Notes: generated by a model from the sequence alone, not told the origin. Counted from the first letter of the stretch, positions 14,104-36,578 are shown. The stretch is 64,000 bases of DNA from a virus (IMGVR_UViG_3300032053_000009:82630-146629), one strand, 5' to 3'. Numbers and translations are program-made.

Positions 14104-14118
14104 GATATTGCCTCCTTG

Positions 14119-14589: not shown

Positions 14590-14669
14590 TAAGAACTGGC
14601 ACGGCACGGTGGGATCTTAGGTCCCCAAAAGGTGATCAGCCCTTCCCGCTCTCCGACAAATATGTTTTG

Positions 14670-14993: not shown

Positions 14994-15008
14994 ATTGCCT
15001 CCTAAGAA

Positions 15009-15863: not shown

Positions 15864-15865
15864 AA

Positions 15866-18793: not shown

Positions 18794-19123
18794 CGCCCTG
18801 CCTCCTAAAATGTAATGTATTTATACAATCTTTTCAACACTGTCTGGTAGTGTTTCCTGTTATAAGCACAATCTGTAGTGTGTTCTTCCTCGGTGATCAT
18901 CTTTTCAAGCACGTCAGCAAATTCTCAAGCGATCTGTCATCCAGTCTCGATTCAAGACTGAACCCCTCCGGCGCCGCTTTTCTTATCTTTGGCTTGTACT
19001 CAGGACGCACCATCGGTTTAGGATGGCGCACCCTGGAAATGCCATTCAATAACGCCAGCGCAGCATCGAGACTTCCTCGTATTTTCATGCCTCAACTCCC
19101 ACAAAGTCATATAATTTCAGCCC

Positions 19124-19642
19124 ATGAACAAACGAGGACCGAAACCCAAACCAATCGAACAGAGATTTTGGCAACACGTTAAGAAAAATGAATCGTGTTG
19201 GGTTTGGACAGGATGCAAGGTCTCGGCTGAATCTCAATATGGCATGATACGGATGCCAAATCAAAACAGTAAACGAATCATGTTGCTTGCTCATCGCCTT
19301 TCTTGGGAACTTCACTATGGAACAATCCCACCTGGACAACAAGTTCTTCATCGTTGCGATAACCCTCCATGCGTAAACCCCAAACATCTTTTTCTTGGAA
19401 CCCCAAAAGATAACGTACATGATGCCATGAATAAGCATCGCTTTATTCAAGGCGAAACGCATGGAAGAGCCAAGCTGACTACAAACGATATTAAGAACAT
19501 ACGCAACTTGTCCGAACAAGGATGGACAGCCGATAACATTGCCCAGGCTTACCCAGTAACTAAGTATCACATTTCTCAAATTATCAGACGTAAGAGATGG
19601 ACTCATATCATGCCAGCTCCAAGTCTTTCTCAGCGACCGTAA
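19124..19642 (+). CDS. HNH homing endonuclease, 172 aa
   Basis: The motifs WHVKKNESCWVWTGC...GYGMIR...LAHRLSW...HRCDNPPCVNPKHLFLGTPKDN match HNH_3 plus a C-terminal DNA-binding region. It is the only clearly motif-supported plus-strand gene here and converges on the giant gene. Confidence 0.8.
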   Translation: MNKRGPKPKPIEQRFWQHVKKNESCWVWTGCKVSAESQYGMIRMPNQNSKRIMLLAHRLSWELHYGTIPPGQQVLHRCDNPPCVNPKHLFLGTPKDNVHDAMNKHRFIQGETHGRAKLTTNDIKNIRNLSEQGWTADNIAQAYPVTKYHISQIIRRKRWTHIMPAPSLSQRP

Positions 19643-22600
19643 AAGCCAATCCGGTCGGTTGATCGTATCCATCGAGCGTCACAGCGTCATACTCTTTGTC
19701 AGCGGAAACATCCGCTGCGTGCCGCTTCAACACCTTTGCTTTGTCTCCTGATGTAAGCCACACGAGATCGCCCTCGTTGAATTTATACCCGCCACTCTTG
19801 AAGAACTCTTCCGTTGACTGAATCTTAAGCGCCATTTTCTTGCGCTTCAACTTACGAGACTCAGCGTCAAGTTCCCAGGCGCTACCCGCCAGGTCTGAAC
19901 TCTTGAACTGCTCGAAGTATTTGGCATCCTTCTTCATCTCCATCGGCACGTGTTTGTCGCAATAATAAGTAGGCGTATTGCTGCCGCTGTAATATGCCAC
20001 GATAGGTCCAGCATGACCCGTACCAGATGTGTCAGCGCATTTCTGAGCTGCCTCTTCTTCAAACCGCTCATTGAACTCACGCTCTGGCTCAATGATATTG
20101 AAATCATAAATGGACTCCACTTGTCCACTCGGCAACATCACATCAATCACATCCAACGTGCCTTCATTGGGCGCATAATCCACCAGCGTCACTTCCGCAT
20201 CCTGTGTCAGCCACTTCGCCGCAGGATAAGATTCAACAAGACCAGGCGCCGTCGGTGTAACCTTCACTTTCGTGCCAGGTTCAAGACCAGCTCGCTTCTT
20301 CAGCCCAGCCGTGATCCATCCTTGCGGAGTGAGAACTTCAAAGCTCACTTCATTATCTTCAGCAGCGCCGTCAGCCACGGTCATTCTGGAAACAGACACA
20401 CGATGCTTGCCATCATCGAACTTCACGTTGTCGAAGTGACCCGAATGAATGGTTGGCAACGCCATCAACTGTTCCTTGTTCATGTTCATGACCGTCTCAT
20501 AGTCCAGCTCGTCAGCCTTCTTGCTCATCGAGCCAACGATGTCCTGCGGCTTGTGCGTCACTTCCTCGCCGCCCTTCTCAGCCAGCACGACCGTGATCTC
20601 ATAAGCCTTTTTGATCCCGTGCTCCTTGGCTATTTTCTGCTGAGCCTCATAAGAAGTCTTGGCGTGCGTCTCATACTGCTTGCCCCTGTAGTAACCGATG
20701 TACCCGTTCTCGCCGTCAGCTTGTTTGTCCAGTGACGACTCGCCGTGCAGACCCTTGTCGCCATCATCAACAGATTCAACGGCGGCAGTTTGCTGCATCG
20801 CTGCCTTCATTCCCGCTTCATCCACTTCAGCAGCGGCGCCCATATATCTCTTGAGCACACTCTGGATCTTGGAAGTTGTCTGCGAATACTTCTGCGTGTT
20901 GATGAACGTCTGACCTTCGTTGGATCGGTAAGCGATTGGCGTGGCGTAATTGATAAGCGACCAGCCGTTCGGCTCCTTGTTGATTTTCAAGTTCTGCGTG
21001 CCCCAAGTCGGCATCTTGTCTTTCGGGAATGAGTCAGCAGCGAACATTGAAATGACCTGCTCATTCGTGGCAGCCTGTATTTCAAGCGACGCCTTCACTT
21101 CCCCACCAGACAACAGCGCTTCAATCTCTCCCTTGTAAGCATCACCAAACGGGATCTCAATAAACCGCTTGCCATACCATTCATGACCCTCCACGTCAGC
21201 GTTGGACCATTGGAAACCCATGCCTTCATTTTCAAGGAAGGCTATGATCTTGTCCGCTTCTTCAGGAGAAGATGGGAGGACGTACAGATCATCAAGTCCA
21301 TGACCCAACCCATGCGAACCAAACTCAGCCGCTGTCACTTCTGTCTTGGCCGCTTCTTCAGCAGCTTGCGCCTTCTCTTCTTTGTTTTGTTTGCGGGTCT
21401 CCTGTTGCTCCTTGAGACGCTTCTCCAACTTTTCCAAAGCATCGACGGTAGAGGCTATTTCGGACGGTTCCGCTTTCTCCACGTCAAGTTCTTTCAGTTT
21501 CTTACGGAGCGACTTCACTTGATCTGATAGTCCGGCTTCGATAACAGAGCCGAACGCACTCCCGCTCATAATACCAAGCGCCGCCTGCACTCCTTCGGGG
21601 TTAGCTCCGGCGCCGATAAGGGCTTGAGCCATGACGTTCAGCATAGTTCTATTCTTTTTGTAATCGTCCAAGACTCTCATGTAATCACCATAATGTCCTT
21701 TGGTGGTGGCCATCTTACTTTCTATGGTCTTGACCATTTCAAGAATATCTGGATCTTTCGACAGATCAGAAATAACCTTCTGAATTTTCTGCTCCCTCGT
21801 CTCTCCCCCTGGCTTCACCTGCTCGGTCGCTCCTGCCGTTACTGTAGCCGCTTCCTCGACAGCCTTGGCTCGTTCGTCTTTCTTGGTCTGACGAGTCTCC
21901 TGCTGATCCTTCAGCCTCTTCTCCATCTTCTCAAGCGCATCTACAGTGGACGCAATCTCAGACGGATCTGCTTTTTCCACATCAAGATCCTTCAGCTTCC
22001 GACGCAGGGACTTCACTTGGTCGGAGAGTCCGGCGTCAACTTCAAATTGCGGATCTCGCACACGCTCTGTGTACGACCGCTCCTGACGTTTCACCACGTC
22101 AGCACATTCAGGACAGTACACGAACCCCGTGGAGTCAAACTCTTTACCACAGGATTTGCATTTGGTCTTGTCACCCATCGCACCTTCAGCGCCAAGATCT
22201 TCTTCTGCCGGAGTCATATCGAACACGATCTCATCCCACAGCTTGCTCGCCGTGACCTCATTCGTAAATCCATTGACGGCAACGAAACCCTGTTCGCCCG
22301 TGCCGATGATGATGAACGGATGAACTCTGAACCATTCCTTCTCGGCGTCGGTGAGAGGCGCAACCTTTAATTCTTCTGCCGCCTTCTCCGCCTCTTCAAC
22401 AGTAACGTCTCGAAGTAAGCCATACCACTCCGACGTGCCTTCATTGCTTACTTCTTCGTCGGCGCCCGCCATCGTCAACTCCCAGGCAATCTGATCCACG
22501 ATGGTGCCGAATTTGCCAGGTCCATAAGGTCGAATCCCCTCCGCCGCTGTCTTTTTCATACCGCCCTCCTGAAGTCCGGCAAAATGAAGCGTGCCTTCAT

Positions 22601-25600
22601 CGCCAACATAAATGTTTATCTCACCAAACGAGTGAGCGATCTCGGTCAACTTGTCGCCAATCTCGCCCAACCCACGATCCCAGAATCCAGCGCCATGCCC
22701 ATTGCGAGTCAGCCAGAAGTCATGTCCGGCTTGTTCTTCGCTCATGTCTTTCAATAAATCTCCGGCCTGCTTCTGAAACTCCGCACAGTCAGCCTTGGCC
22801 AATTCAATATCGTCAGGAGCGATGTCAGAGAAGTCATAATTCTGATCCAGCGGATCGCCGCCCGATTCATCTGACTCATCGTTGGACGACCATAGCGCCG
22901 CCTCAAGATACGAGCCAACGAACGCACCCAAGCCTTGATAGGATACGTCAGCGCCCATAACCTTCTTCTGTTCAAACTCGTTACGGTGCTCTCGCTCCTG
23001 TTCTATCGTATGGTCAAGCACCTTCTTGAGCTTCGGGCTGGCGTCTTCCTTCTGCCCACGATATTCGTCAATGGCAGCCTGCTCAAGCTCCACATCCCGC
23101 TTCACAATCTCTTCGTCTCGACCAGCGGTCTTCGTCATATCCACGGGACTGATACCGCCGTGGTCATCTTGCAACCAAACGCCTGGATAGAACTTCTCTT
23201 TGTCCATGTGGCTTTTGATAGCAGCCATGATCTCATCCCACTCCACGGACTTGGCAATCTGTTTCCCACTTTGATAAGCGGCGTACATCCCACCAAGGCG
23301 TCCTTCGGTCGTGATCACGATGTCGTCATCGGCAGGCTCAGTCGGCTCATCGGTTTGAAGCAGATCTTCAACGGGGAGAATTTCATCTGGATTGCCATCA
23401 GCAACGCCATGATCAAAGAAGTCAGCTTTGCGCTTCGCCGCCGTGACATCCTGCGCATACGTCTTTCCGCAGCCAGGACATTCATAATGGTACTGCAAGG
23501 CGCCCGCCGGACTCTTGATGTCCAGCTCTTCGCCACAATCATCGCACCGCTTCATATCTTCCGGCTCGGCTTCGGCTGTGAATGCGTATTTGCATTCAGG
23601 GCAGGTATGAGTCTCTGTGTGAACGGGCGCACCTGGCACTTCAACAAAATCAGTTCGTGCGCCGCACTTCGGACACATCATGGGTTGGTCATGAAGATAA
23701 TAAATGTCTTCAGCGGCTTCGATCAACATCCGCTTCACCATGCCAGCTTTCTTTGTGCGCACGGGCGACATTGACCAGTCTTCGCAATTCTGCGGCATAT
23801 CAGCAATGGCTTCATGCTCAGCTTGATGTTGATCACGATTCTCGATATTGTGTTCAGAAATCAAATCACCTTCAATGCTGTAATAACGCACGTGCCAATT
23901 CCGTGCGCCACGCTCATCAGCCACGCCTTCATCTCTGCCGGAAGTCTTTGTCCAACGACTTCGCTTGGATGACTCGGCGCCAATATCTTCTTCTTCCTTC
24001 GGCGCTTCCGGTCGGGCGTAATAATGCTCGCCTGTCGGTGCGTCGTGGTGATAGACCTTGAAGTGCAGGGCGTCACCCTCGTCATAGACTTCGACAGTCA
24101 CGTCTGTCTTCGGCAACACTTTGTCAAGGAACTCAGCGCCGTTATTGGTCTCAACGTACATATAACCAGACCGAGCCTGCCAGCCCAGGTTTGATCCATC
24201 GAGACGCCACGGCAGATTGTTTGGATTCTTGGCCGCCAGAGCTTCACTAAGACCGTCCTTCAAATCATCCCAAGCGAACTGATAAATGTCCGAGTCTTCG
24301 TATGCAGAGTTACGAGCCTGTTCTTCGGCTTCGCCTTCGAGTCCTTCTTGCTTCAGCAACGCCTTGAACTTGTCCGCATCATGACCGGACTTCTCCCACG
24401 CCTCTTCAACCTCATCCTTCATCCAATAGTCATTGCCTTCGTCCGGCTCTTCCATAAGCCACTTCACTTGATTGTCGGCAACATCAGACTGGTCATAGGA
24501 CAGGATCAACTGCCCTTTCTCTTCGCCCCGTGCTGTACGTTTTGAAGCCTCAGTCTTCGGCAACCGCCCCGTGCCTTCGCACGCCGGACACTCTTTGCCT
24601 TCCACATGACCGTCGCCGCCACAGTTCGTGCAGGTCTCCCAGTCTTTGGATGTCTTGGTCCAGCCAGGCTTCTTTCTGGATAGCCCTTCCAGTGGCAGCT
24701 CAGGTTGTTCCGGCGCCACTCCTCCGGTTTCCTGTTTGATGGTCTCAATCACTTCCTCGGCATTGTTCAACAACTCTTTCTCGTCAAGGTAGGCTTCGCC
24801 ATGATTGGCAAACGTATCTTCCACCGCCCGCCACAACATCTCGTCAGCCTTCTCAGATAACTCATAATCAGGCAGGTTGAGATGCTTCTTTATCATAGCC
24901 AGCGCATCCTGTCGTGCCCAGCTATCGTAGTCCTCACGATATTCTTCAGTCTCAGTTTCGGAATAATCATCCTCATCAAGCACAGGATAGTCCGCCATCT
25001 TGTTCTCGATGTCCTGAAGGATCGCCACCTTTTCCTTGGCGTCCTTGTGAACCAGAATACTCTCCACCCAACCCACAGCCCAATGATTAAAGCGAGCCAC
25101 GATAACGCCATCCTTCTCGCCGCCAAGCATCTCAAGGGCTGACTTGAAGTTGGATCGCTCAAGCGCATCAGAGTCACGGCTCTGGCCAGGTCCAACATAA
25201 TAATCGGGATAGTCCTCACCCATGTAATCAGCCGGATGCTCCCACAACTTCAGCGCCACACGAGACAGCGCTGCCCCTTTCTTCTGCGGGCGCTTCGATT
25301 CAAGATAAGCCAAGATGTCACCCACGTCACCGCTACCCGCATCGTATTGGATCTTAACGTCCGGCTGGCTCTCAGGAATCAAAATCAAATGCTGAGCTTC
25401 GGTGCCAGGCTTGTACGTAAAAGTTGTCGCCGCCGGATCGCCTTCACGTTCACCTGTGAAGAACACATCCTCAGTCCAAAACTTCTCATGCACGTTGTCG
25501 CCATCAACCTTGATGTAGACGCCCTGGTACTTGTCAAACTCTTTATGGGACGCACGGAACCCTTCGGCGCTGAGCGCATTCGTGATCTCATCGTACAGCT

Positions 25601-26570
25601 CATGATCATAATCCTGGTCAGGCTCGCCCGTCGCCACTTTCTTAAACTCGCCAGCGATCTTACGAGACGTGACAGGCTGCTTCTGCTTCTTCATCTTGTA
25701 CGCCATGTGATCGTGGGTCAGCGCTTCAATGATCTGCGCCGCTTGCTCTTCATTGATTCCGTACACGCTCACCATTTCATTGATCGTGTCCGACATCAAA
25801 CCATAGTCAGCCATGTTGGATGTGTCAAAATGACCATACCCGTAATAAGGATCAGTCCCGTCCATGATGGCTTTGATGAGTCCGGCAACCTTGTCATCGC
25901 CCGCCGCTTCACGCTCGCCATAAGTCTGCCGCAGCAAATCGTCTTCGCACACATCACAAAGCCCTGCCGCCGCTCCTGAACTGTTGATGATGCCTTCTTT
26001 CTTACAACGCTTGCACGTGCCTTGAGCTGCTTTGCGCTGGCTGACTTCTACTTCCGGCTCATCATCTGGATCATTCATCCATCGAGCGCCGCAATTCCAG
26101 CACTTGTTCAAAGCCTGATCCACGGTCGCCACATCCCACACGGGCTTGCCACACTCAGGGCATTTCACTGAGGCGGAACGCTCAGCCCCAATTGGGTCAA
26201 GATAGTCAGACTCAACACCAATCAAAGTCCCGTTAAAATCCACATTAACATGAGAGCTGTTCTCGAACACCCGCTCAATCGTTCCCGTTGAATCGCCCAA
26301 CTTATTCAGCGTGTCACGCCATTCAAACTGCTCATGCGTATAACCAGCGTGCGCCGGAACGCTCCGGCTGTGCATCGCCAATGCGTTTGGCTTGAGTTTC
26401 ACTTGGTCGCCGACTTTGAAAGTTTGCTTGGCTGCCTTTTTACTGGCTGAACAACTACACGTGCCCATGCAGCTACAAGTCTCTGACTCTTGCTTGATCT
26501 TAGGCGGCGCTTTCCTGTCCTTGGGTTCCACGACATCAATCCATTTCTTCTTAGGTAGTACGTTGTCCAT
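19608..26570 (-). CDS. giant multi-zinc-ribbon protein, 2320 aa
   Basis: Uninterrupted 6.96 kb ORF with an AAGGAGAG RBS. It has at least six CxxC...CxxC modules and an internal duplicated coiled-coil segment of about 64 aa. Composition is acidic. Confidence 0.8.
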   Translation of the reverse strand: MDNVLPKKKWIDVVEPKDRKAPPKIKQESETCSCMGTCSCSASKKAAKQTFKVGDQVKLKPNALAMHSRSVPAHAGYTHEQFEWRDTLNKLGDSTGTIERVFENSSHVNVDFNGTLIGVESDYLDPIGAERSASVKCPECGKPVWDVATVDQALNKCWNCGARWMNDPDDEPEVEVSQRKAAQGTCKRCKKEGIINSSGAAAGLCDVCEDDLLRQTYGEREAAGDDKVAGLIKAIMDGTDPYYGYGHFDTSNMADYGLMSDTINEMVSVYGINEEQAAQIIEALTHDHMAYKMKKQKQPVTSRKIAGEFKKVATGEPDQDYDHELYDEITNALSAEGFRASHKEFDKYQGVYIKVDGDNVHEKFWTEDVFFTGEREGDPAATTFTYKPGTEAQHLILIPESQPDVKIQYDAGSGDVGDILAYLESKRPQKKGAALSRVALKLWEHPADYMGEDYPDYYVGPGQSRDSDALERSNFKSALEMLGGEKDGVIVARFNHWAVGWVESILVHKDAKEKVAILQDIENKMADYPVLDEDDYSETETEEYREDYDSWARQDALAMIKKHLNLPDYELSEKADEMLWRAVEDTFANHGEAYLDEKELLNNAEEVIETIKQETGGVAPEQPELPLEGLSRKKPGWTKTSKDWETCTNCGGDGHVEGKECPACEGTGRLPKTEASKRTARGEEKGQLILSYDQSDVADNQVKWLMEEPDEGNDYWMKDEVEEAWEKSGHDADKFKALLKQEGLEGEAEEQARNSAYEDSDIYQFAWDDLKDGLSEALAAKNPNNLPWRLDGSNLGWQARSGYMYVETNNGAEFLDKVLPKTDVTVEVYDEGDALHFKVYHHDAPTGEHYYARPEAPKEEEDIGAESSKRSRWTKTSGRDEGVADERGARNWHVRYYSIEGDLISEHNIENRDQHQAEHEAIADMPQNCEDWSMSPVRTKKAGMVKRMLIEAAEDIYYLHDQPMMCPKCGARTDFVEVPGAPVHTETHTCPECKYAFTAEAEPEDMKRCDDCGEELDIKSPAGALQYHYECPGCGKTYAQDVTAAKRKADFFDHGVADGNPDEILPVEDLLQTDEPTEPADDDIVITTEGRLGGMYAAYQSGKQIAKSVEWDEIMAAIKSHMDKEKFYPGVWLQDDHGGISPVDMTKTAGRDEEIVKRDVELEQAAIDEYRGQKEDASPKLKKVLDHTIEQEREHRNEFEQKKVMGADVSYQGLGAFVGSYLEAALWSSNDESDESGGDPLDQNYDFSDIAPDDIELAKADCAEFQKQAGDLLKDMSEEQAGHDFWLTRNGHGAGFWDRGLGEIGDKLTEIAHSFGEINIYVGDEGTLHFAGLQEGGMKKTAAEGIRPYGPGKFGTIVDQIAWELTMAGADEEVSNEGTSEWYGLLRDVTVEEAEKAAEELKVAPLTDAEKEWFRVHPFIIIGTGEQGFVAVNGFTNEVTASKLWDEIVFDMTPAEEDLGAEGAMGDKTKCKSCGKEFDSTGFVYCPECADVVKRQERSYTERVRDPQFEVDAGLSDQVKSLRRKLKDLDVEKADPSEIASTVDALEKMEKRLKDQQETRQTKKDERAKAVEEAATVTAGATEQVKPGGETREQKIQKVISDLSKDPDILEMVKTIESKMATTKGHYGDYMRVLDDYKKNRTMLNVMAQALIGAGANPEGVQAALGIMSGSAFGSVIEAGLSDQVKSLRKKLKELDVEKAEPSEIASTVDALEKLEKRLKEQQETRKQNKEEKAQAAEEAAKTEVTAAEFGSHGLGHGLDDLYVLPSSPEEADKIIAFLENEGMGFQWSNADVEGHEWYGKRFIEIPFGDAYKGEIEALLSGGEVKASLEIQAATNEQVISMFAADSFPKDKMPTWGTQNLKINKEPNGWSLINYATPIAYRSNEGQTFINTQKYSQTTSKIQSVLKRYMGAAAEVDEAGMKAAMQQTAAVESVDDGDKGLHGESSLDKQADGENGYIGYYRGKQYETHAKTSYEAQQKIAKEHGIKKAYEITVVLAEKGGEEVTHKPQDIVGSMSKKADELDYETVMNMNKEQLMALPTIHSGHFDNVKFDDGKHRVSVSRMTVADGAAEDNEVSFEVLTPQGWITAGLKKRAGLEPGTKVKVTPTAPGLVESYPAAKWLTQDAEVTLVDYAPNEGTLDVIDVMLPSGQVESIYDFNIIEPEREFNERFEEEAAQKCADTSGTGHAGPIVAYYSGSNTPTYYCDKHVPMEMKKDAKYFEQFKSSDLAGSAWELDAESRKLKRKKMALKIQSTEEFFKSGGYKFNEGDLVWLTSGDKAKVLKRHAADVSADKEYDAVTLDGYDQPTGLAFTVAEKDLELA
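21348..22028 (-). repeat. diverged internal duplication (two 192-nt copies, about 75% nt identity, 300 nt apart) inside the giant gene
   Basis: Copy 1 begins AGLSDQVKSLRRKLKDLDVEKADPSEIASTVDALEKMEKRLKDQQETR. Copy 2 begins AGLSDQVKSLRKKLKELDVEKAEPSEIASTVDALEKLEKRLKEQQETR. Confidence 0.7.
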
Positions 26571-26582
26571 TGAAATCTCTCC

Positions 26583-29500
26583 TTATTTTGAAGTCATGGC
26601 GTCGTCAATGATGTCGAACGCTTGCACTTCAGACAGTTTGAATTGGCTCATTAGATCTTCGGCGATCTCGTCTTCATTAAGATTGCCGAGCTTCAACAAA
26701 TCTTTCACAAGCTGGGCAGCATTGGTGGCGATGTCCGGCTCCGGCGCCCCTGCTTTCGGGAACACGTCTTGCGTCCCGTACTCAACCGGATCTTCCAACT
26801 TGTCCCGATCACGGGCAGCGGGCTGCACATCCTTATCGAGTCCGCTCTTCTCCGGCTCCGTGTCGGTATGAGCGTGCATAGCAGCGGGCTTCACCCACAA
26901 CCACGACACCATCAGCCCGTAGATGTCCGGCACGTCGCCGCCATTGGTCGATGCAAACTGGCTGGCCACGCTCATGGCCTGCTTCTCGTTCAGGAACGGA
27001 GTCTGGCCTGCGTCCACGTGGCAACCAAGCACCTTGCAGGCAATGTCAAGCAGCGCTTCTTGTGGATCGGTGGCGAGCCGTTTGATCTGAACCACCCTGG
27101 GATCATTGGGAAAGCTCGACTCAAGCTCAAGTAACCTATTAAAATCACTGTGTCCATTTGCTTTTGCGATAATCCAGTCATGACCATTTGTCTTCCAGTC
27201 AGGATGAGTGGTGACAATGCGAGCGTACTCCCCCCACAACTTGTCCGTGTCAATCTTCATCGTCGCCACAAATCTGTTTCCGACCTTCTGCATCATCATC
27301 CGGCCATAGGTCTTGGGCGGCGTTGGCGGCGGCACTTGCTTGGGCACACTGACGATCTTGGCGTCCTTGAATCCAGCTACGAAGTCAATCGCCTCCGCAA
27401 TGTCAGCAAACACTTCATGTCCCGATGGCTGACCATCTTCAGCAAAGTACGTCAGCCGCCATCCATCAGCTCTTGTGTCTTTGGACAGCACGGCAGGCTG
27501 CGGGTACAACCCCGCAATGACAGCGCCTTGCTCAGGATCAATGGTTTCCACCAAACGCTGGCGGCGCTCATCCTTGGCTTTCTTCAAATTGATTGGATCA
27601 TTCGGATCAAGCGGCACGAGCTGGTACGCTTCAATCTCATCTTTCGTGAGTGGGCGTGGAAAGTCCACGGTTCCAAATTTGTAATCAGCGTGCGGCTTCG
27701 TTGATTTAGGAATCCAACCTTTGGGCAGCGTGGCGAATCCCGCCGGACGATATGAAAGCGCATACGTGTAAACCTTTTGCGGCTGAGCTGGCTCCGCTGC
27801 GTTGCGTACCCGCATCATCTTGCCAATGATCTTCGGCACGGGGCGGGCGGTCGGCTCCTCCACAGGCGTCTTCAACACAGGCTCCTGGCCAGGAACAATC
27901 TCTGGCGGAACCTCCGGCTCCGGCGGCGCCGTGGGTTCCGGTGGCCGCTGCTGCGTTATCTCTTCCACTGGCGTTGGCGGAAGGATCGGTTTCTCCTGTG
28001 GTCCCACTCCGGCCACATCCTCCGGCTTCGGTTCCTTGGGCGGTGGCGGTTCAATGCCTGTCTGCTTGGCAAGTTGGTCATGGATCTTCCGCACATCCTC
28101 TTTGGTGTACTTCAATTGGTTGCGGCTGAGCCAGGTGTAAATCTCATGCTGAATCGCCTCCATATCCATGCCCTTCAGCTTTTCCAGCGTCACCATTTCC
28201 AGCACTCGGTTCGCTACGTAGACTGGTTGAAGGCTGATCGCCGCTTGACTATCTATTGAGGTGTTAAGCGACTCTCGGCGCACGCTCTCAGATTGCACAG
28301 ATGACACATCCAAATCACTGCCAATGGGTTGCTGTAATCCGTGTGGTGCATTTCTGAGTTGAGGCTCCCGCACTTGCAACACGGTTCTTTCTTTATTTTC
28401 CCCACTGAAACGAGATGTCTTGCCTGCTTTCGTGTTTTGACTTTCATTATCTGTTCTGGTGTTGGAGGTTTTCGCACTCGCACCTTGCGTGGCTTCACTT
28501 CCAAATTGTGGAGAGCGAGATGACACTTGCGGCACATCCACACTATCTCTAAAGGCTTGCCGTGATCGGGATGGTGCATTTGTGAGATCGGATTCCCGCA
28601 ATGAGCGCACGGTTCCATCTTCTTTTCTTGTCCACGTCGAAGATGATTCCAAGCCATCTGACGTGCTCTCTTGCGTGCCAACTGTGCCTCGTTGAGAGGA
28701 TGAGTCTTGCTCCACGTCCTCATGTATTCCCTCATATATGCCCGATGACAATCGAGGCATCGCCCGTTCCCCTTCATTCTCTGCTGGCCGCATTGGCATA
28801 GTTCCGAGTTCATGATCACTGATTTTAGACCATTTTTTAAGACCACTCCATACCTTCATATCCTCAATGGCGACATCCACATCCCCCAATCCTGACCAGG
28901 CTTCAGGTCCTTCCGGTTCGTAGTTGACGCCGGACTCCACGTTGGCGGACACGCTCAGCCGCATCTCGCCGTCCTTCTGTCCCGTCTCTTTATTGATCAG
29001 CTCCACAAACACGTCACCGAACACCACGCCCTCATCCTCGTCAAGGTGTGTGATGGTGATCTGCGGGCGGTACAAAGTAAAATCGAGTTCAAGGTAATCC
29101 GGCACCAGATCCGGCAGCACTTGAATGACTTGATTCTCAACCTCTTCATCGTATTGCCATGCGTGGCCACGGCGCTGCGGCTCGGCAGGCGAGTCCGTTC
29201 GTGGTTCATCAGCCTTCATCACCGTTAAGGGTGGGAGATTAGGCGATCTCGAAGGCGGCTTAACCGCCTCCGGTTTTTGGGGCGGCGGCGCTGGTTTCAC
29301 TGGCTCCACAGGTTTATCACCACGTTCAATGTGATGTGGTTCATTATCAACCTTTCTCGGCTCACCTGGCTCTTGCGCCTGCTTGGTGAGCGCCCAGCTC
29401 GCTTTCTTCGCTACTTTGCGGGCTGTACGAGGTGCTTTAACCTTCTTTTGAACTTTTTTTGTTGATTTTGACGTTCCATGTGGAACTTTTTGACCTGTTT

Positions 29501-30416
29501 TACCCGCTCTCTTGTCATCCATCTCGCACCACCCCTCATCAATGACGTTCTTGATCTCGGACAAATCTTGTGGATTCAATTCCGGCTGTTCATCCACCTC
29601 TCCCATGATCTTTTCCAGATTCTTCCACAGCCAAATGTAGCCAAATTTTTGCAGGTATTTGAAGGTCAGGTTCTCTTCCGAGTCCGGCTCATACGCCTCG
29701 TCCCGCTCCTCGCTGACATCATACGCCTTCTCCATGATGTCCACGAGTTCTTGTTCCAACTCACCCATCCGCTCCTGAACTCTCTTCTGAAACTTTGATC
29801 GAGACAAGGCATCCATAGTTTGTAGTGCCTCTTCAAGCGCCTCAATGTTCTGGATGTCACGCTTGGCGTCGCCAATGGATATGTCCAGCTCCTGCGTGAT
29901 TGCTTCAGCGTCATCTATAATGGAAGAGTAAATCGCTTCAGGATCAAAGTCAGATTCAACCGACCGTGGTTCCTGCTCCCACGTGTCGTTCAGCAAATCA
30001 TAAATGCCATCACTTGTGGTTGCCACCTTATCCGGCGTTTCAAAGCTGATCTCCAACGGATGGCTTGTTCCTTCCACCTTCCACTGCTGATCTCTTATGG
30101 CATCCTTGTACGTGTCAACGACCTCTTCCAGATCGGTTTTAGACAGCCCAGGATATTCAGCCTTCAGCGCATCCCAGTCCACGACAACGTGAACGTCCAG
30201 GTCTGACTTGGAGTTGTACTGCCAGCTCGTGAGGCTACCCAGGATTCTGACAGCGCCAATCCAGTTCACATCTGCCAGGTATTCATTCATCTTCGCCAGT
30301 ATGTCGGCTTTGATATTTTGCTTCAATATTCCATTCTCTTCCCACACGTCTGGGCAGAGTCCTGGCTTTGGATAATCGAGTACGTTCGCTCTCTTAATCA
30401 ATTGTTTTGTGAACAT
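26583..30416 (-). CDS. large protein, 1277 aa, with Pro-rich linker
   Basis: Uninterrupted ORF. It has an N-terminal globular domain, a long central P/E/S-rich disordered region and a C-terminal domain of about 450 aa. Confidence 0.75.
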   Translation of the reverse strand: MFTKQLIKRANVLDYPKPGLCPDVWEENGILKQNIKADILAKMNEYLADVNWIGAVRILGSLTSWQYNSKSDLDVHVVVDWDALKAEYPGLSKTDLEEVVDTYKDAIRDQQWKVEGTSHPLEISFETPDKVATTSDGIYDLLNDTWEQEPRSVESDFDPEAIYSSIIDDAEAITQELDISIGDAKRDIQNIEALEEALQTMDALSRSKFQKRVQERMGELEQELVDIMEKAYDVSEERDEAYEPDSEENLTFKYLQKFGYIWLWKNLEKIMGEVDEQPELNPQDLSEIKNVIDEGWCEMDDKRAGKTGQKVPHGTSKSTKKVQKKVKAPRTARKVAKKASWALTKQAQEPGEPRKVDNEPHHIERGDKPVEPVKPAPPPQKPEAVKPPSRSPNLPPLTVMKADEPRTDSPAEPQRRGHAWQYDEEVENQVIQVLPDLVPDYLELDFTLYRPQITITHLDEDEGVVFGDVFVELINKETGQKDGEMRLSVSANVESGVNYEPEGPEAWSGLGDVDVAIEDMKVWSGLKKWSKISDHELGTMPMRPAENEGERAMPRLSSGIYEGIHEDVEQDSSSQRGTVGTQESTSDGLESSSTWTRKEDGTVRSLRESDLTNAPSRSRQAFRDSVDVPQVSSRSPQFGSEATQGASAKTSNTRTDNESQNTKAGKTSRFSGENKERTVLQVREPQLRNAPHGLQQPIGSDLDVSSVQSESVRRESLNTSIDSQAAISLQPVYVANRVLEMVTLEKLKGMDMEAIQHEIYTWLSRNQLKYTKEDVRKIHDQLAKQTGIEPPPPKEPKPEDVAGVGPQEKPILPPTPVEEITQQRPPEPTAPPEPEVPPEIVPGQEPVLKTPVEEPTARPVPKIIGKMMRVRNAAEPAQPQKVYTYALSYRPAGFATLPKGWIPKSTKPHADYKFGTVDFPRPLTKDEIEAYQLVPLDPNDPINLKKAKDERRQRLVETIDPEQGAVIAGLYPQPAVLSKDTRADGWRLTYFAEDGQPSGHEVFADIAEAIDFVAGFKDAKIVSVPKQVPPPTPPKTYGRMMMQKVGNRFVATMKIDTDKLWGEYARIVTTHPDWKTNGHDWIIAKANGHSDFNRLLELESSFPNDPRVVQIKRLATDPQEALLDIACKVLGCHVDAGQTPFLNEKQAMSVASQFASTNGGDVPDIYGLMVSWLWVKPAAMHAHTDTEPEKSGLDKDVQPAARDRDKLEDPVEYGTQDVFPKAGAPEPDIATNAAQLVKDLLKLGNLNEDEIAEDLMSQFKLSEVQAFDIIDDAMTSK

Positions 30417-30730
30417 GATCCATCAGTAAAGCCACGAGTCACCCCAAGCGGGCGCCGTGAGCTTAACCCTCCATGCGATCTTATAACCTCAACCCAAATC
30501 AACTCATCCGGCTTGTCGAACTTAATGAACGGCCAGAACTCGCCAGGCATATATCGTCTTGTGAAAACAATGCCAGGAAACGTCTTGAACATCCACGCAT
30601 CATGTTTGGTCGCACGCTCAAATATAGAGCGGTAATGATCCGGCGGTAAAACTTCACGCCCATTATTGGCATAATAATGAACTTTGTCCATGACGTTATC
30701 CGCCAATGTACTCCGCTCCGGCAATGCCAA
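30398..30730 (-). CDS. hypothetical protein, about 100 aa
   Basis: Its end overlaps the start of the 1277-aa gene. The start codon is uncertain. Confidence 0.4.
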   Translation of the reverse strand: MALPERSTLADNVMDKVHYYANNGREVLPPDHYRSIFERATKHDAWMFKTFPGIVFTRRYMPGEFWPFIKFDKPDELIWVEVIRSHGGLSSRRPLGVTRGFTDGSCSQNN

Positions 30731-30959
30731 TCACCCACGCTCCGCTGCCCTGAACGTACACGCCGTTCTTGAAATCAAGTCCGTTCGGAAACGGATGAGA
30801 GTTGCTTCCCACGGCAGTGAGAAGAGTCGTCATCGTTATCCCATTGGCTCCGGTCGTGCTGTCAAAGAGCTGAGCATTTGTCGTGACTTGAACGGATGTC
30901 ACTTTACCGCTGCCTATGATCGCTTGTGCGTTTCCTGTTCCCCAAATTGGTTTGGCCAT
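30696..30959 (-). CDS. small Gly/Thr-rich protein, 87 aa (start MAKPIWG)
   Basis: A perfect AAGGAGGAAcaaATG RBS precedes the start. Confidence 0.45.
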   Translation of the reverse strand: MAKPIWGTGNAQAIIGSGKVTSVQVTTNAQLFDSTTGANGITMTTLLTAVGSNSHPFPNGLDFKNGVYVQGSGAWVIGIAGAEYIGG

Positions 30960-31177
30960 TTGTTCCTCCTTAGATTGTTCGTGGCGCCAGCTCTTCTGAC
31001 AGCATGGCTTCACATTCTTTGATCTTAATCAGAATCTTTTTCAGCATTTCTGGTCTTAGCATATCCTTGTTAAGAAACTCCGACTCCGCAGATAAGCAAT
31101 TCATCAGCGTCTCTTCCGTATGCTCAAGCTGGGCTTCAATGACGAAACCCAGAATGACGCTGTTGCCATGAGCGAGT

Positions 31178-32563
31178 TTATATCTCTCCAAACCCCGCCT
31201 CCAAGTCCGCTTGCACTTCTTGAAGCAGCGCCAAATCGTCAGAGACGAGTCCAATGGCGTCGGCTGCAAGCGCTTTCAAAGAATTGAACCAGCCTTTGAT
31301 CGTGTCCCAGAACGATGCTGACATGACGTTCAGGCTTGACTTCGTTTGCGGCGTCTCCATCAGCTTCGTCAACTGTTCGGGACTGAGTTTTTCCAGCTCA
31401 GGCGCTTGCAGTTCTTTTGGCCGCTTCTTTTCCTCGGTCTCAAGGTAGGCGCTGAAGCTCTCTGCTATCGGCTCCATCTTTGTAAAATCCTGCACGATCT
31501 CTTGATAGCGTGCCATCTTCTTCGGGCTGACAATCTCTTCAATGGTGGCGATGGCGGCGTTGACCTTCTCAACTGAGCGTAACGCCGACACCAGTCGTTC
31601 TGAAGATGTCTTAAACGTGTACACCATGTTGCCAAGCAAAAATTCTTTCTGTTCCAGCAAGCGGGCAAGTTCGTTCATGTACTCTTCAGCGCCTTTAGCT
31701 TCTTCCTCAAGTTTCGGGATGCCCAGCTTCGTTCTTAACTTGGCTTGGTAATCCTTAACCTGCTCGTTCATGAGCGCCACCGCAGCGTACAAAGTTTCCA
31801 GCTTGTCATTGACGGCAAGAATTTTCTTAACCGCAATCTCTTTCGCTGACATCTCAGCCACGCCACGCTCTTCACCTTTCTTAGGCGCATCTGTTTCTTT
31901 CTTCTTAAGAAAATCCAAAACGTCCGCTTGCTTAAGCATAAGTCCCATCCTCCTCATATAATTCACAACCTGCTGAGCCGAGAACAGCCCGTGGCTGTCC
32001 CAAAAAATCCGCATCGCCCGATCAACCCTGTCCTTCTGGCCGACCGTGAGCTGGAAATAGGTCAGGCCGTAAATGATGTTGGAGATCTGGTTGCGGGTCT
32101 CCATTTCCTGATGAATCATGCGTGGAAACGGCTGGTCAGCTTGAAACGCTTTGACGCCATTCTGCCGTACATCTGCCGTCAGCGTCCTGTCCATGAGCAC
32201 GCCATGTCCTTCTGGATCTGCCATTGGGTTTTCCTTTGGCCGCTTGGTGGTTTTGTACGGTGCATGAACAAGAGGCTGATCTTTGTTGCTCTTCTCCACC
32301 AGCCCTTCAAAGGATTGCAGATGCTCCGTTCCGGTTTCACCCACCAGCGTGCCCGTGTCACCACGCTGGCTGTACGGAATAGAGAACGAACAATCTGGGC
32401 ACGTGAACGCCTTGAACGGCGTCAACGGCTGCGTGGTTAAGATCATCTTACGCTGACAGTTCGGGCACCCAGGCGTGTAGTTCTGACTGGTGTCGTAGTC
32501 ATAAGGATGAACGGCATCCTGACTTGGACTGTTGTCTAATGGTCCGTCAGCAAATCGTTTCAT
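31178..32563 (-). CDS. zinc-ribbon/coiled-coil protein, 461 aa
   Basis: The N-terminus carries CPNC...CPDC. The C-terminal two-thirds are helical. It forms a TAATG overlap with the upstream gene. Confidence 0.65.
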   Translation of the reverse strand: MKRFADGPLDNSPSQDAVHPYDYDTSQNYTPGCPNCQRKMILTTQPLTPFKAFTCPDCSFSIPYSQRGDTGTLVGETGTEHLQSFEGLVEKSNKDQPLVHAPYKTTKRPKENPMADPEGHGVLMDRTLTADVRQNGVKAFQADQPFPRMIHQEMETRNQISNIIYGLTYFQLTVGQKDRVDRAMRIFWDSHGLFSAQQVVNYMRRMGLMLKQADVLDFLKKKETDAPKKGEERGVAEMSAKEIAVKKILAVNDKLETLYAAVALMNEQVKDYQAKLRTKLGIPKLEEEAKGAEEYMNELARLLEQKEFLLGNMVYTFKTSSERLVSALRSVEKVNAAIATIEEIVSPKKMARYQEIVQDFTKMEPIAESFSAYLETEEKKRPKELQAPELEKLSPEQLTKLMETPQTKSSLNVMSASFWDTIKGWFNSLKALAADAIGLVSDDLALLQEVQADLEAGFGEI

Positions 32564-34212
32564 TATTTTCCTTCGTAGATCACGAACGGCATATCCAGAT
32601 CTTTCACATATCTCATGATCGCAGACGCTTTCTTAAGCGACCAATTCATCTTGCCCGCCGTCACGTAAGCAATCACAGCCGGATCTTGAGACACGATTGG
32701 GCTTTCTTGATCTGACTCAAGCCACAGCTCCCAAGCTCCATTGTGGTAATTCAAAGACGACTTCTTCTTCCCGCCTGGCTTATAGCCTTCGCCCTTCATC
32801 CACCATGCCAATGCCCACGGGTTGTCCACTTTGTCCTTGTGCTTCTTCAGCTTCTTCACCGTGCCTTCCCAGCCTTCCGGCGCCACCGCAACCTTCTTCT
32901 GACTAGACTCCGTTTCCATCTTCTCTTCCTTGGTCATGGTTGTCCCCCAACACCCAGGACAGCCAGTCTTGTCCTTGCCAAGCCCTGAGCCAGCGGGAAT
33001 CCATTGGTCACACGTGGAGCAATACCGTGCCCCTGGCTTGTTGGCGTTGATGTCTTCGTACTCGTCAGCCGCCTTCACTTCCTTGACAGTCTGCTCCGTG
33101 TTGTCGCCTTCAGGTCCCTTCGGTGTCGTCTGATAATCCGGCTTGCCATCCTTGTCAAGCCCCACCAGCGGCGTCACCTTGGTCTCCATTGTCATCGGCA
33201 GCTCTTCTTTCATCGCATCCGACTTCTCATTCGCCTTTTCCATGCTGTCGTAGACGCCGACCTCTTTCCACGTCTTGGTCAATTCGTCCAGCGCTTCAAG
33301 CCTGTACTTAATTTTCTTCGGCGTGGGATTCAAGGTCTCAGGTTCCTGCGGGTTGGATTTGGTGGCGCCAGGTTTGTCGGTCGGGTAATCAACGCCAGCG
33401 CTCATCGTCATCTTTGATGGAGCGGGCTTGGACACAGGCGCTTTCTTCATGCCTTCCTGTTCCTCTTCTTCCAGCTCGTAGCCTTGCAGGTAATCCATGA
33501 GCGGGTTGCGCTCACGGTCGGCCATACCGATGGTGCCTTCAGGATTGTCACTTGGTCCTTGCATAGCGCCGTCATCAGCTTGAACAGCGGTGCCGGATTC
33601 GTCACCCATCTTCACATCTGCGGTGGCCAGCTCTTCCTGCGTCACCCACTGCTCCTGTCCGTTCTCCCACGCAATCAAAACCCGATCAGGATCAACGTGC
33701 ATGACGTGTCCTTTGCCCATCGTTGGAGACGTGACGCTGCGGCCAGCGTCATTGGTTTTGATCATCTCATAACCTGGGATCGTTTCAGCAATTTCTTCTG
33801 CGTGCCGCAACAAATCCTTTTTGGCCTGAGCGATCAACCGGATAGCCATCATGGGATCAATGACGGAACCGAACACGCCCTTCAAATAATTTTGCAAATC
33901 CGATGTGACTAACGCCAAGCGCTCATCAACAACGTGCAGATCAGCGTACCGCTTTTCAAACACCTCGCCCTCCACCGACGCCATGATCGTTTTGATCCGG
34001 CTCTGCGCTTTCATCAAAGATCCGATCTTGTGCAAGGCTTCAGCGATCCGGCGCTGAGCGCAATACGCCTCCACTTCAATGTCCTGCGCCATACGTTCCA
34101 GATCAACGTGGCTCTCTGCCTTCTCCCAATCCAAATTGATATTGGCTGTGACGATTCTCTCAGCCGCATCAATCAACATATTGTCCGCAACACCTGTTTC
34201 AAATGATCCCAT
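32563..34212 (-). CDS. large partly disordered protein with CxxC...CxxC module, 549 aa
   Basis: It has an AGGAGGAA RBS and lies immediately downstream of TerL. A long K/E/P-rich disordered region is present. Confidence 0.65.
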   Translation of the reverse strand: MGSFETGVADNMLIDAAERIVTANINLDWEKAESHVDLERMAQDIEVEAYCAQRRIAEALHKIGSLMKAQSRIKTIMASVEGEVFEKRYADLHVVDERLALVTSDLQNYLKGVFGSVIDPMMAIRLIAQAKKDLLRHAEEIAETIPGYEMIKTNDAGRSVTSPTMGKGHVMHVDPDRVLIAWENGQEQWVTQEELATADVKMGDESGTAVQADDGAMQGPSDNPEGTIGMADRERNPLMDYLQGYELEEEEQEGMKKAPVSKPAPSKMTMSAGVDYPTDKPGATKSNPQEPETLNPTPKKIKYRLEALDELTKTWKEVGVYDSMEKANEKSDAMKEELPMTMETKVTPLVGLDKDGKPDYQTTPKGPEGDNTEQTVKEVKAADEYEDINANKPGARYCSTCDQWIPAGSGLGKDKTGCPGCWGTTMTKEEKMETESSQKKVAVAPEGWEGTVKKLKKHKDKVDNPWALAWWMKGEGYKPGGKKKSSLNYHNGAWELWLESDQESPIVSQDPAVIAYVTAGKMNWSLKKASAIMRYVKDLDMPFVIYEGK

Positions 34213-34231: not shown

Positions 34232-35998
34232 TCAAGCGGTTTTCCCTGCGTGAAATCTTGCCTTCACTCCCTCGCCCGTATCCAACGACATGGAAACGGT
34301 TTCCCCTTCATCATCTGAAGCGGATAAATTTTCGCTGACGTATTCACCTTCATCAAAGCCAAGCAACCCCAGCGGCTCGATCAAAACCTTGACGGCGCCA
34401 ACACACGTATCCGCCACGTCCTTGCTACCCGTGTCGGGGTGATCGACTTTGAGACCTTTCAAAAGCTCAAGCGCCTTGATTTCAATGATCTGTTTCGGAT
34501 AATTCAACAAACTAATCCGTTGAAAGTAAATTTGTTCCTTGAAATTCTTGTAATCCTGTAGATCCAATCGGTAGGTTGTGCTGGAAATGCCAGCCGCTCG
34601 CAGGTTCTGAACCATCTGCGCTGAGTTCCATTGATCGAAGTAAACGCCTTTGACAATGATCTTGCTGGAAATTTGTTTTATGATTTCTTCAATATTGGGA
34701 AAGCTGACGATGAGCTTCTTCTTCGGGTCTGGCTCCCACGCCGTCACCGCATCTTGAATAAAATTAATAGACGAAGCGCCTTTAGGCAGCATGAAACGTT
34801 CAGCGTGAAATATGGAAAACCCAGCGCTGTCGTTGTTAAGTCCCAGATCAATTGTAATAATATGTTCATGGCGCAAAAATGCTGGCACGTTCCACTTCAC
34901 CAGCCTCTTCATAATGTACTTGCCTTCCGTGTAAGTTTCAAACTCTATTAACGGCTTGCGGTTGTCATCCACGCAAGCGTCCACCATCTCCACCTTCTCT
35001 ATAAAGGGCGACTCCGCTCCTGGCGGCAGGCACATATATTTTGCCTTGGCATCAGTGGGATCTCGGTCGAAATGTTCCTTAAACTCAAGCGGCACTTCAT
35101 AACTTTCAAATGTGAACCACTGACCGGAGAAACATTCCCTGGGTTTGATCTGCCACGTGAACCCTTTGTCGGCGTAGACGTGCAGCTTGTCCTGCGCCCA
35201 GTCGTACATCTTCTCTATGAAGTCCCCTTCGTACCGTGGATAAGAAAGCAGAAAACTTTTAACCGACGTGCCGAACCGTGACTTCGCCGACGAGTCCAAC
35301 ATATTGTAAATCTTGCTGGCATTGCGAGTTTGCGTCTTGTCTTTGAACGCCGAGATCTCGTCGCAAACGTAGGTGAGGATGTTCATACCTTCGGTGGATT
35401 CTTGTTCGGAGTGGCGGGAAAAAGCTCGCAGTCGTTTCGGGAAGAAGATGGAGTTTTTGTTGACCGTGATAACGTTCTCGTATTGCCATTCTTCCGCAGG
35501 CTCGACGAAGCGACCGCTCATTTTAATCGGGTACTTCTGCTTCAGCCACGCCCAATTGAGAACGTTGTTTTTGAGCTTGTCGAAGAAGACGTTGAGCGCC
35601 TGGTCGCTTGAGTACGCCACGTTCACGCAGTCGATGGTGTCCCTCACCGAAATCCCAGGGAACTTGGCTTGCGGGCGCCTCATGCACAACAAAACGTGGA
35701 TCAGGTAAAGAATAATATGGCACGAGATAGTATCTTTACCTGATCCTTTGCCCCATTCCAGCACGGCTGTAGAATTTATGTTGTCAAAAATCTTTTTTGG
35801 ATCGTCGCCAAGCATGAAGTCGGCAACGCTGTACTGTCGGTCGCTATAGGAAGGGTAGTCCATGTGAAACGGAGATGTGATAAAATTGTGAAACGTCATC
35901 GGCTCTTCATCCCAAACAACGATGTGTCGATCTCCGGTAACGGATTTCGACTTTAATCCCGCCGCTGCTTCCGTGATGTAATTGTCAAGTGAGAGCAT
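34232..35998 (-). CDS. terL: terminase large subunit, 588 aa
   Basis: Walker A (GKGSGKDT) and Walker B-like (VCDEISAF) motifs are present. The C-terminal nuclease region contains ITIDLGLNNDSAGFSIFHAE. Confidence 0.8.
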   Translation of the reverse strand: MLSLDNYITEAAAGLKSKSVTGDRHIVVWDEEPMTFHNFITSPFHMDYPSYSDRQYSVADFMLGDDPKKIFDNINSTAVLEWGKGSGKDTISCHIILYLIHVLLCMRRPQAKFPGISVRDTIDCVNVAYSSDQALNVFFDKLKNNVLNWAWLKQKYPIKMSGRFVEPAEEWQYENVITVNKNSIFFPKRLRAFSRHSEQESTEGMNILTYVCDEISAFKDKTQTRNASKIYNMLDSSAKSRFGTSVKSFLLSYPRYEGDFIEKMYDWAQDKLHVYADKGFTWQIKPRECFSGQWFTFESYEVPLEFKEHFDRDPTDAKAKYMCLPPGAESPFIEKVEMVDACVDDNRKPLIEFETYTEGKYIMKRLVKWNVPAFLRHEHIITIDLGLNNDSAGFSIFHAERFMLPKGASSINFIQDAVTAWEPDPKKKLIVSFPNIEEIIKQISSKIIVKGVYFDQWNSAQMVQNLRAAGISSTTYRLDLQDYKNFKEQIYFQRISLLNYPKQIIEIKALELLKGLKVDHPDTGSKDVADTCVGAVKVLIEPLGLLGFDEGEYVSENLSASDDEGETVSMSLDTGEGVKARFHAGKTA

Positions 35999-36089: not shown

Positions 36090-36578
36090 TCATGATTGCA
36101 ATATCCTCCGTATCAGATCCTCTGTTTTCATTTTCAATTGGTCTCGGTATTCAAATAGAACTTTCTCCTGAGTCTCATCAGGAACGTACTTCAAAAAATA
36201 ATCCACGCTCGTCCGTGCCGCTTCAACGACGACATTCTCAAGAAGTTTCTCAAGATCGAGCTTGTTATCAAATCGACTAAAGCTGTCCAAAATACTTTTA
36301 AGATCCGAGCACAACGCCATCAGCGTGTCTTCAATGTGCCCACGATAAAGATGCTTCTGACACTTATCGCACGTGACAGCGATGGCGTCTTTCTCGTCAC
36401 GCTTCAACTTCTTAATGCGTGCCTTGTACAGCTTCCGAAGCCACTGACGATCTTTGAGAACGCTGGTGTACGTCTTGTTAAGACCGCCGCCAATGAGTAA
36501 TGAGATACCTTTACCATTTGTGGCTTTCGCTTCGCCATCAATTTTAACAGAACTCCGCACCATTACGCCACAGCCCAA
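36090..36578 (-). CDS. hypothetical protein, 162 aa
   Basis: It is the last ORF of the replication operon before the terminator. Confidence 0.45.
   Translation of the reverse strand: MGCGVMVRSSVKIDGEAKATNGKGISLLIGGGLNKTYTSVLKDRQWLRKLYKARIKKLKRDEKDAIAVTCDKCQKHLYRGHIEDTLMALCSDLKSILDSFSRFDNKLDLEKLLENVVVEAARTSVDYFLKYVPDETQEKVLFEYRDQLKMKTEDLIRRILQS

Follow-up and report, generated by a model that had tools for sequence, protein, structure and literature searches.

A block of multi-module giant proteins with a nested HNH endonuclease gene between the terminase and portal genes of an uncultivated phage

The window analysed here is a stretch of 64,000 nucleotides (nt) (IMGVR_UViG_3300032053_000009:82630-146629) of an uncultivated phage of about 146 kb. 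Between the gene of the large terminase subunit (TerL) and the portal gene, it carries a block of four large open reading frames (ORFs), named A to D in the direction of transcription. Their combined length is 14.6 kb, or about 23% of the window, and they encode 4607 amino acid (aa) residues in all. I found that D and C are strings of small modules, that C begins with a predicted nucleotidyltransferase domain and that an HNH endonuclease gene is nested in another frame of C. The locus was compared with those of related phages, mainly a contig from ENA (L001, 145.9 kb) and a sequence from IMG/VR (L004, 144 kb).

The gene block and its modular proteins

As listed in Table 1, the window genes lie on the minus strand, with the exception of a free-standing HNH gene at the far end of the block. 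A begins 19 nt past the end of the TerL gene, A and B overlap by 1 nt, and the gap between C and D is 12 nt. Thus, the sizes, positions and common orientation that a sequence-only reading of this DNA had given for the four ORFs were borne out, as were their placement directly downstream of terL and their share of about a quarter of the window. The same reading had called the ORFs consecutive and tightly coupled, which holds for A/B and C/D but not for B and C, as three small genes lie between them. These small genes are conserved; they were gene-called on an identical contig of 146.6 kb and are present in L001 (91% and 71% identity); one of them matches phrog_28102.

L001 is syntenic with the window and encodes homologues of A (72% identity), B (85%), C (84-86%) and D (55-78%). 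L004 is more distant (TerL 74%), and its homologues of A, B and C are 46%, 53% and 46% identical, respectively; the L004 locus stops within C. Because they are conserved in both relatives, A to D are not chance ORFs. The order TerL-A-B-C-D...portal is common to the window and L001, and the order TerL-A-B-C holds in L004 up to the end of the locus; in these three related phages, the block keeps its place between TerL and the head genes. The block does lie between TerL and the portal gene, but D is not next to the latter: a distance of 7 kb with about 13 genes separates them. A 467-aa ORF adjoining D was considered as the portal gene and rejected, since it has no portal similarity in Pfam or PHROG. 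Bacillus phage G, which is the closest cultured phage by portal similarity, has a TerL-portal gap of 10.6 kb with 12 genes and provides a precedent for such a separation. Upstream of TerL lies a replication module with polymerase, SbcCD-like, RusA-like, DnaB and primase genes. Thus, the block sits at the junction of the replication and head modules. A scan of the minus strand for promoters and terminators inside the block gave counts at chance level, and no DNA direct repeats were found in the block.

Protein D is the largest of the four. Its six zinc ribbons lie at aa 137-160, 186-208, 647-664, 966-993, 1009-1034 and 1471-1489, and at least seven of its modules are defined by homology, that is, by family models and pairwise comparison. 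It was revealed that D modules are common piecemeal, and in another order, to 13 other proteins of 1300-2200 aa that have no Pfam domains. Two D modules are widespread and mostly free-standing elsewhere: the phrog_1915 module (at least 7988 clusters) is otherwise a phage protein of about 120 aa, and the HWAVGWVE module occurs on its own in 2428 cluster representatives, mostly of 150-250 aa. In cultured phages, the free-standing versions of both modules are found in arrays of small non-structural genes. No Pfam family was found for either module, including their free-standing and longer homologues. A 251-aa protein encoded between D and the portal gene is a homologue of the C-terminal module of the giant proteins P0003-P0006 (...FLSxYDGE..YFRES). 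Since this homologue is encoded separately, the module pool reaches beyond D.

The modular structure of D changes among close relatives. A frame change near D aa 440 splits the D homologue of L001 into two ORFs (8920..10011, 363 aa; 10001..15913, 1970 aa), the first 449 residues of D corresponding to a separate ORF there, and module-level indels as well as gene fission or fusion separate close relatives. D also contains two copies of a helical repeat of about 63 aa, which flank one module, were read from the translation and closely resemble each other as protein. A BLAST comparison with P0002 gave 85% identity for a cross-repeat match. The two copies share no exact DNA seed of 12 nt and have many third-position differences, indicating an old duplication; judging from the codon differences, the repeat is evidently kept by selection on the protein. 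Sequence searches of the PDB with C 1-300, with full-length D and with a phrog_1915 profile built on 98 sequences gave nothing significant (a papain-like "FWIVRNSWGAGWG" match had an E value of 0.12), and the searches of PADLOC and NCBIfam yielded marginal matches only.

Protein C consists, from the N-terminus, of a nucleotidyltransferase-like module, a Pro-rich linker, a module at aa 420-527, a segment that reads through the nested HNH gene, a second Pro-rich linker, a DarA_C domain and C-terminal modules. The ATG at 30416 was preferred as its start over the GTG of a 1254-aa gene call, because residues 13-25 are invariant among the homologues. The sequence-only reading had seen no recognizable enzymatic motif in any of the four proteins. 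This was not confirmed, since C 60-126 carries the GS...DxD...E signature of Pol-beta nucleotidyltransferases. Among 10 sequences with 23-92% identity to C, no variation was seen at G60, S61, S71, D72, D74 and H76, and at least 90% retain E122 and E126. These residues satisfy the motif hG[GS]-x9-13-Dh[DE]h, with a third acidic residue on a later strand. The core was modelled with an AF2 pLDDT of 74-91, and its top Foldseek matches are all nucleotidyltransferases (MNT antitoxin, probability 0.98, E value 5e-3), while the Pfam score is below the gathering threshold. The N-terminal module matches phrog_36119 (4e-13), and long helices are predicted for C 159-270. As judged from these residues and the model, C probably begins with a conserved MNT-like nucleotidyltransferase domain. 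In relatives, the homologues of C 10-291 are fused to 2H phosphoesterase/Acb1-like, NUDIX and second nucleotidyltransferase domains.

The DarA_C domain of C matches Pfam PF18789 with 28.9 bits, above the gathering score of 27, and DarA_C is also precomputed for P0016-P0018. The NCBIfam DarA profile matches C at positions 382-479 only (E value 0.002, 16.8 bits against a cut-off of 350). Since only the flexible C-terminal part of P1 DarA is matched, C is not a DarA orthologue. A tblastn search with C of 50,697 cultured-phage records gave a sole match, to an uncultured 735-kb phage, via the N-terminus; a scan of IMG/VR with the C-terminal half of C found no relative.

Of the two smaller proteins, A has one zinc ribbon (aa 398-421) and an acidic, Pro-rich middle part. 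In B, a zinc ribbon lies near the N-terminus (aa 33-58), and the C-terminal half is helical; two separate ORFs correspond to B in L004. A has no match in Pfam, PHROG, NCBIfam or PADLOC and none in cultured phages; tblastn searches of the same phage records with A, B, D 1-1200 and D 1341-2320 gave no match. The features that were said to unite the four proteins are unevenly distributed. CxxC...CxxC zinc ribbons occur in A, B and D but not in C, and strongly Pro-rich linkers occur in C only. The description as partly disordered applies only to C 352-404 and 781-853, which are strongly disorder-like by a TOP-IDP proxy, but not to D, which is mostly made of compact modules.

An HNH endonuclease gene nested in protein C

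The dual-coding endonuclease cassette in C is the most unusual feature of the locus. A Ser-rich segment of 195 aa (C 528-722) had been taken for disorder, and it was found to be an HNH gene read out of frame. The HNH ORF lies in the +1 frame of C, has two CxxC..HH..CxxCH motifs and matches phrog_2340 (1.4e-18), with no Pfam HNH match. It coincides with the Ser-rich segment and is contained in a 616-nt cassette (about 28242..28857); both the start and the stop codon lie inside the insert, and the DNA junctions are sharp. The window and L004 have the cassette. L001 does not; its slot is occupied by a 61-aa zinc ribbon that is in frame with C, and C aligns at 84-86% identity on either side. In L004, too, the C ORF is uninterrupted, and the HNH gene lies in its +1 frame.

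The two versions of the nested gene differ by about 32% at the nucleotide level and by one 6-nt indel, and their products are 67-69% identical. In the HNH frame, the mismatches per codon position are 0.24, 0.25 and 0.46, and there are 53 synonymous and 61 non-synonymous codon differences. In the C frame over the cassette, the identity is 41%, with 9 synonymous and 108 non-synonymous differences. The C frame is nonetheless free of stop codons across the cassette in both phages. Random synonymous recodings of the HNH gene had means of 10.4 and 7.3 stops in the C frame, and none of 20,000 was stop-free. The downstream half of C has no start of its own and would thus be made only via read-through of the cassette. 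The simplest account of these patterns is that selection acts on the HNH frame, while the C frame is merely kept stop-free. A homing endonuclease gene would have been inserted into a tolerant linker slot of C, where it would be translated from an internal start, and C would be translated straight through the cassette.

Two other explanations were considered. Sequencing frameshifts were rejected, because two phages that were assembled independently of each other both keep the two frames open; the short-read-assembler style of the contig name is a further point against them. A frameshift fusion of the N-terminal part of C to the HNH protein is unlikely, since the HNH frame of L004 has a stop three codons before the conserved ATG. 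I did not find the persistence of a homing endonuclease in another frame of a host linker described; the literature searched gave only genes split by endonucleases. For annotation, the case is a warning that apparent disorder in a giant viral ORF can be an out-of-frame gene.

The surroundings of the block are rich in mobile nucleases. The free-standing HNH gene overlaps the final 35 nt of D on the opposite strand. A 195-aa minus-strand ORF at 19085..19672 is spurious, the gene caller having chosen the wrong strand on the identical contig. An endonuclease VII/HNH-type gene lies between the block and the portal gene, and its N-terminal zinc-binding part matches phrog_2340, the same PHROG as the nested HNH. 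In L001, the homologues of C and D are separated by an AP2-domain gene (153 aa), and a GIY-YIG gene follows the giant gene in L006, a phage with a more distant D-like giant. The L004 TerL (7078..9780) has 900 aa owing to an in-frame HNH intein (CFVGDTRI...VVVHN, followed by S) at DHPDTG^SKD; the window TerL is an intein-free allele with this site intact.

Two other kinds of neighbours are worth recording. Two genes upstream of TerL, a 223-aa ORF (36563..37234, minus strand) reads like sigma-70 region 2/4 but has no PHROG match, and an annotated sigma factor lies between TerL and the portal gene in phage G. Beyond the portal gene lie the candidate protease and major capsid protein genes with a scaffold-like ORF between them, followed downstream of the capsid gene by a head-tail connector match. 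The GTG start of the 590-aa protease-like protein is doubtful, as no Shine-Dalgarno site lies upstream.

Table 1. Features of the block and its neighbours (nt positions in the window; aa positions in the protein named)
Feature	Position	Strand	Description
Protein A	32563..34212	-	549 aa; ORF with strong Shine-Dalgarno site
Protein B	31178..32563	-	461 aa
Small gene between B and C	30970..31191	-	73 aa
Small gene between B and C	30696..30959	-	87 aa
Small gene between B and C	30398..30691	-	97 aa
Protein C	26583..30416	-	1277 aa
C aa 10-291	29544..30389	-	Predicted minimal (MNT/ANT-like) Pol-beta nucleotidyltransferase core and helical extension
Nested HNH endonuclease gene	28253..28846	-	+1 frame of C; 197 aa from GTG; conserved ATG at 28813
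C aa 881-936	27609..27776	-	DarA_C; PF18789, 1.6e-6
Protein D	19608..26570	-	2320 aa; about 20 small modules and six zinc ribbons
D aa 42-126			SH3-like module
D aa 231-321			Module
D aa 303-429	within 24633..25664	-	Motif TGEPDQDYD..FDKYQGVY; common to 10 other giants
D aa 430-646	within 24633..25664	-	Motif LWEHP..YYVGPGQSRDS..HWAVGWVE; common to 4 other giants
D aa 1068-1211			Module
D aa 1210-1330	22581..22943	-	phrog_1915, 1.5e-31; motif GHDFWLTRNGHGAGFWD
D aa 1513-1575	21846..22034	-	Helical repeat, first copy
D aa 1678-1740	21351..21539	-	Helical repeat, second copy
D aa 1797-1906			Module
D aa 2028-2079			phrog_37997 module
Free-standing HNH homing endonuclease	19124..19642	+	172 aa; phrog_1872, 1e-30; phrog_59, 2e-25
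251-aa protein	16417..17172	-	blastp 35% identity, E 5e-23, to the last 215 aa of giant P0006
Endonuclease VII/HNH-type gene	15866..16420	-	PF02945, 6e-25
TerL	34232..35998	-	588 aa; phrog_2, 5.4e-16; tblastn 29% identity, E 2e-51, to annotated terminases; upstream edge of block
Portal	10676..12568	-	630 aa; phrog_16240, 2.6e-49; 27% identity, E 3e-61, to Bacillus phage G portal
Candidate protease and major capsid protein region	5669..10036
590-aa protein	8264..10036	-	Prohead-protease-like domain at aa 90-270, 40% identity to phage G region; then long Lys/Glu-rich extension
Scaffold-like ORF	7213..8244		343 aa
Head-tail connector match	2910..3674

Possible roles of the four proteins

In the reading that I prefer, C and D belong to the polyvalent type of proteins, as A and B probably do, and are strings of small accessory modules that would form a packaged bundle for anti-defence or host takeover; as a whole, I give it about an even chance. 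The part of it that treats the proteins as modular accessory bundles appears well supported. The modules would fold independently, spaced by zinc ribbons and by Pro-rich or basic linkers. When infection starts, they would counter the defences of the host or help to take it over. Their fusion would give co-expression and, most likely, co-packaging in the capsid and co-delivery with the DNA. Virion packaging of A to D is plausible from the position of the genes in three related phages.

Several observations weigh against this reading. A and B have no detectable homology beyond close relatives, and no structural analogue of the phrog_1915 module was found in the PDB, although its model is confident. 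No MPTase, ArdC, PBECR, ParB, MTase-helicase or LPD match was found in A to D with Pfam. The capsid-binding part of DarA was not detected in C (no DarA_N match), only the flexible C-terminal domain being common, and no capsid-targeting or cleavage motif is common to A to D and the major capsid protein. The more distant D-like giants of two further phages, L002 and L006, are not next to head genes; their neighbours are UvrD, RNase T and DnaD-like genes, together with a gene that resembles T5 A1. The T5 A1-like gene encodes a "DNA transfer protein" (L002 21556..23334; L006 21860..23641; phrog_1745, 1.5e-91), lies about 6 kb downstream of the giant gene and hints at a T5-like pre-early region. 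In the window, the replication module comes immediately before the block, which might therefore be a middle unit and not a late one.

Some of these points lead to a competing explanation, in which the multi-module accessory proteins are not packaged but produced inside the cell along with the products of the replication or middle genes, and would there serve host takeover, DNA metabolism or the evasion of defences, the adjacency to TerL being incidental. The polymerase, SbcCD, RusA, DnaB and primase genes directly before the block would fit this, as would the position of the L002 and L006 giants among helicase, RNase T and DnaD-like genes upstream of the T5 A1-like protein, the free-standing module homologues in arrays of small non-structural genes, and the absence of the capsid-binding part of DarA from the matches of C. 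However, the window and L001 agree in the placement between TerL and the portal gene, L004 has TerL-A-B-C, and no terminator or promoter signal above chance was found inside the block. C has a DarA_C domain, and the polyvalent-protein literature expects packaging in portal-terminase phages. I consider this explanation less likely than the packaged bundle, of which it is the most serious competitor.

It was also assessed whether D-type giants could be polyproteins. In an unbiased k-mer scan of D, the pattern KK.A was among the most over-represented (7 observed against 1.5 expected), and it lies at N-terminal module edges. KK.A or its variants (ASKK, KKTA) rank high in five other giants, while the P0010 lineage has ESKVNE instead. 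Among 15 giants, 22 of 132 module starts follow the motif, against 12.4 +/- 3.3 by chance (P about 0.005). The idea that KK.A marks fossil N-termini was rejected, as only 1 of 112 and 0 of 98 free-standing homologues start with it. Thus, the motif is specific to junctions and is not a remnant of an N-terminus. KK.A as a prohead-protease site found no support, since the major capsid protein does not have the motif. It is speculative that the (S/T/M)KK.A junctions are processing sites, and I regard it as improbable that one D-type chain is loaded into the procapsid, cut at these junctions into 15-20 effectors and co-injected with the DNA. If true, the phage would deliver an effector cocktail from its capsid, with a lineage-specific cleavage code (e.g., ESKVNE in P0010), and the effectors would be the same as separate early genes elsewhere.

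A structural role in the virion, as a tape measure, tail fibre, baseplate or a purely architectural internal head body or scaffold, is very unlikely. The large size of the proteins, the helical repeats in D, the long helices predicted in C and the vicinity of head genes would suit such parts. On the other hand, the proteins are composed of many unrelated small modules that also exist free-standing, the module order is not conserved, and the candidate protease, major capsid protein, scaffold-like ORF and head-tail connector are assigned elsewhere. Tail-fibre, tape-measure and baseplate folds had been named beforehand as the finding that would speak against internal virion proteins; no tail, fibre, tape-measure or scaffold match was found in Pfam, PHROGs and NCBIfam. 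The likeness to ejection proteins (T7 gp14-16; P22 gp7, gp16 and gp20) that the sequence-only reading had drawn likewise found no match in the three libraries, nor did MuF, SPP1 gp7 and transglycosylases, which it had named as search targets. Its other suggestion, a cryptic virion RNA polymerase (crAss gp66 or N4 vRNAP type) among the giants, is hardly credible: no family match and no DxDGD or NADFDGD motif was found, and no such fold in the structure models, which cover about half of D and part of C; the lone DxDxD match, DQDYD at D 318, has Asn or Ala in place of the third Asp in some homologues; and the D modules of about 60-220 aa are too small for a pair of double-psi beta-barrels.

Comparison with known systems

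The N-terminal domain of C (aa 10-150) appears to have the same minimal fold as the HEPN-MNT toxin-antitoxin and aminoglycoside nucleotidyltransferases, as far as the GS...DxD...E signature and the model indicate. Unlike them, it stands at the head of a phage protein of 1277 aa and is joined to a helical extension of its own. The nested HNH gene resembles gene-invading homing endonucleases (inteins, intron-encoded and free-standing ones) in that it lies at a precise site, is variably present and has a neighbourhood rich in endonucleases, with an intein. T4 mobA, together with genes 39/60, is a known case of a free-standing homing endonuclease that splits genes (PMC5009743). In contrast, the nested HNH is not spliced out, as protein or as RNA, nor does it split C, whose frame reads through.

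T4 Alt and IPI-III and the phiKZ inner-body proteins are packaged in the capsid, delivered with the DNA and cut by the prohead protease at short recurrent motifs. A to D have no sequence or domain similarity to them and no common capsid-targeting sequence, and cleavage at KK.A would be hypothetical. With the P1 Dar system (DarA, Hdf, DarB, DdrA, DdrB), C has in common the C-terminal domain of DarA. The Dar proteins are internal to the head, are co-ejected and shield the DNA from restriction; as a working model, I propose the same for the block. Residues 70-382 of DarA are capsid-binding and comprise hexon-binding, alpha-helical and penton-binding domains (PMC12810830). This region is not detectable in C, and no DarB-like methylase-helicase was found.

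The best fit among the options listed by the sequence-only reading is that of polyvalent proteins, by the DarA_C domain, the fused modules in relatives and the shuffled D modules. The polyvalent proteins of phages and conjugative elements were defined by Iyer, Burroughs, Anand, de Souza and Aravind in 2017 (PMC5512222), who found 2H to be specific to the phage type and the Pol-beta nucleotidyltransferase to occur only in those of conjugative elements. In portal-terminase phages, they are large chains of many (2-15 or more) unrelated domains, as C and D are, and their mosaicism, shuffling, gain and loss of domains and solo modules are all seen here. DarA_C in C, the 2H, NUDIX and nucleotidyltransferase partners in relatives and the location near virion genes are further likenesses. 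Unlike the described proteins, those of the block have no MPTase, ArdC-N, DarB methylase-helicase, PBECR, DdrB-ParB, ART or LPDs detected beyond DarA_C and no self-processing protease domain, and four such genes lie in a row.

The locus is best filed as a variation on the known polyvalent-protein theme, with an almost uncatalogued set of modules. Should these proteins be bundles that are delivered or act early, a single functional context would connect thousands of phage proteins that otherwise stand alone (phrog_1915, HWAVGWVE). Such a context would offer a route to the roles of those proteins, for example by assaying single modules against panels of defence systems. As the module set lies almost wholly outside the polyvalent catalogue of 2017, the class would be much broader in uncultivated phages than described.

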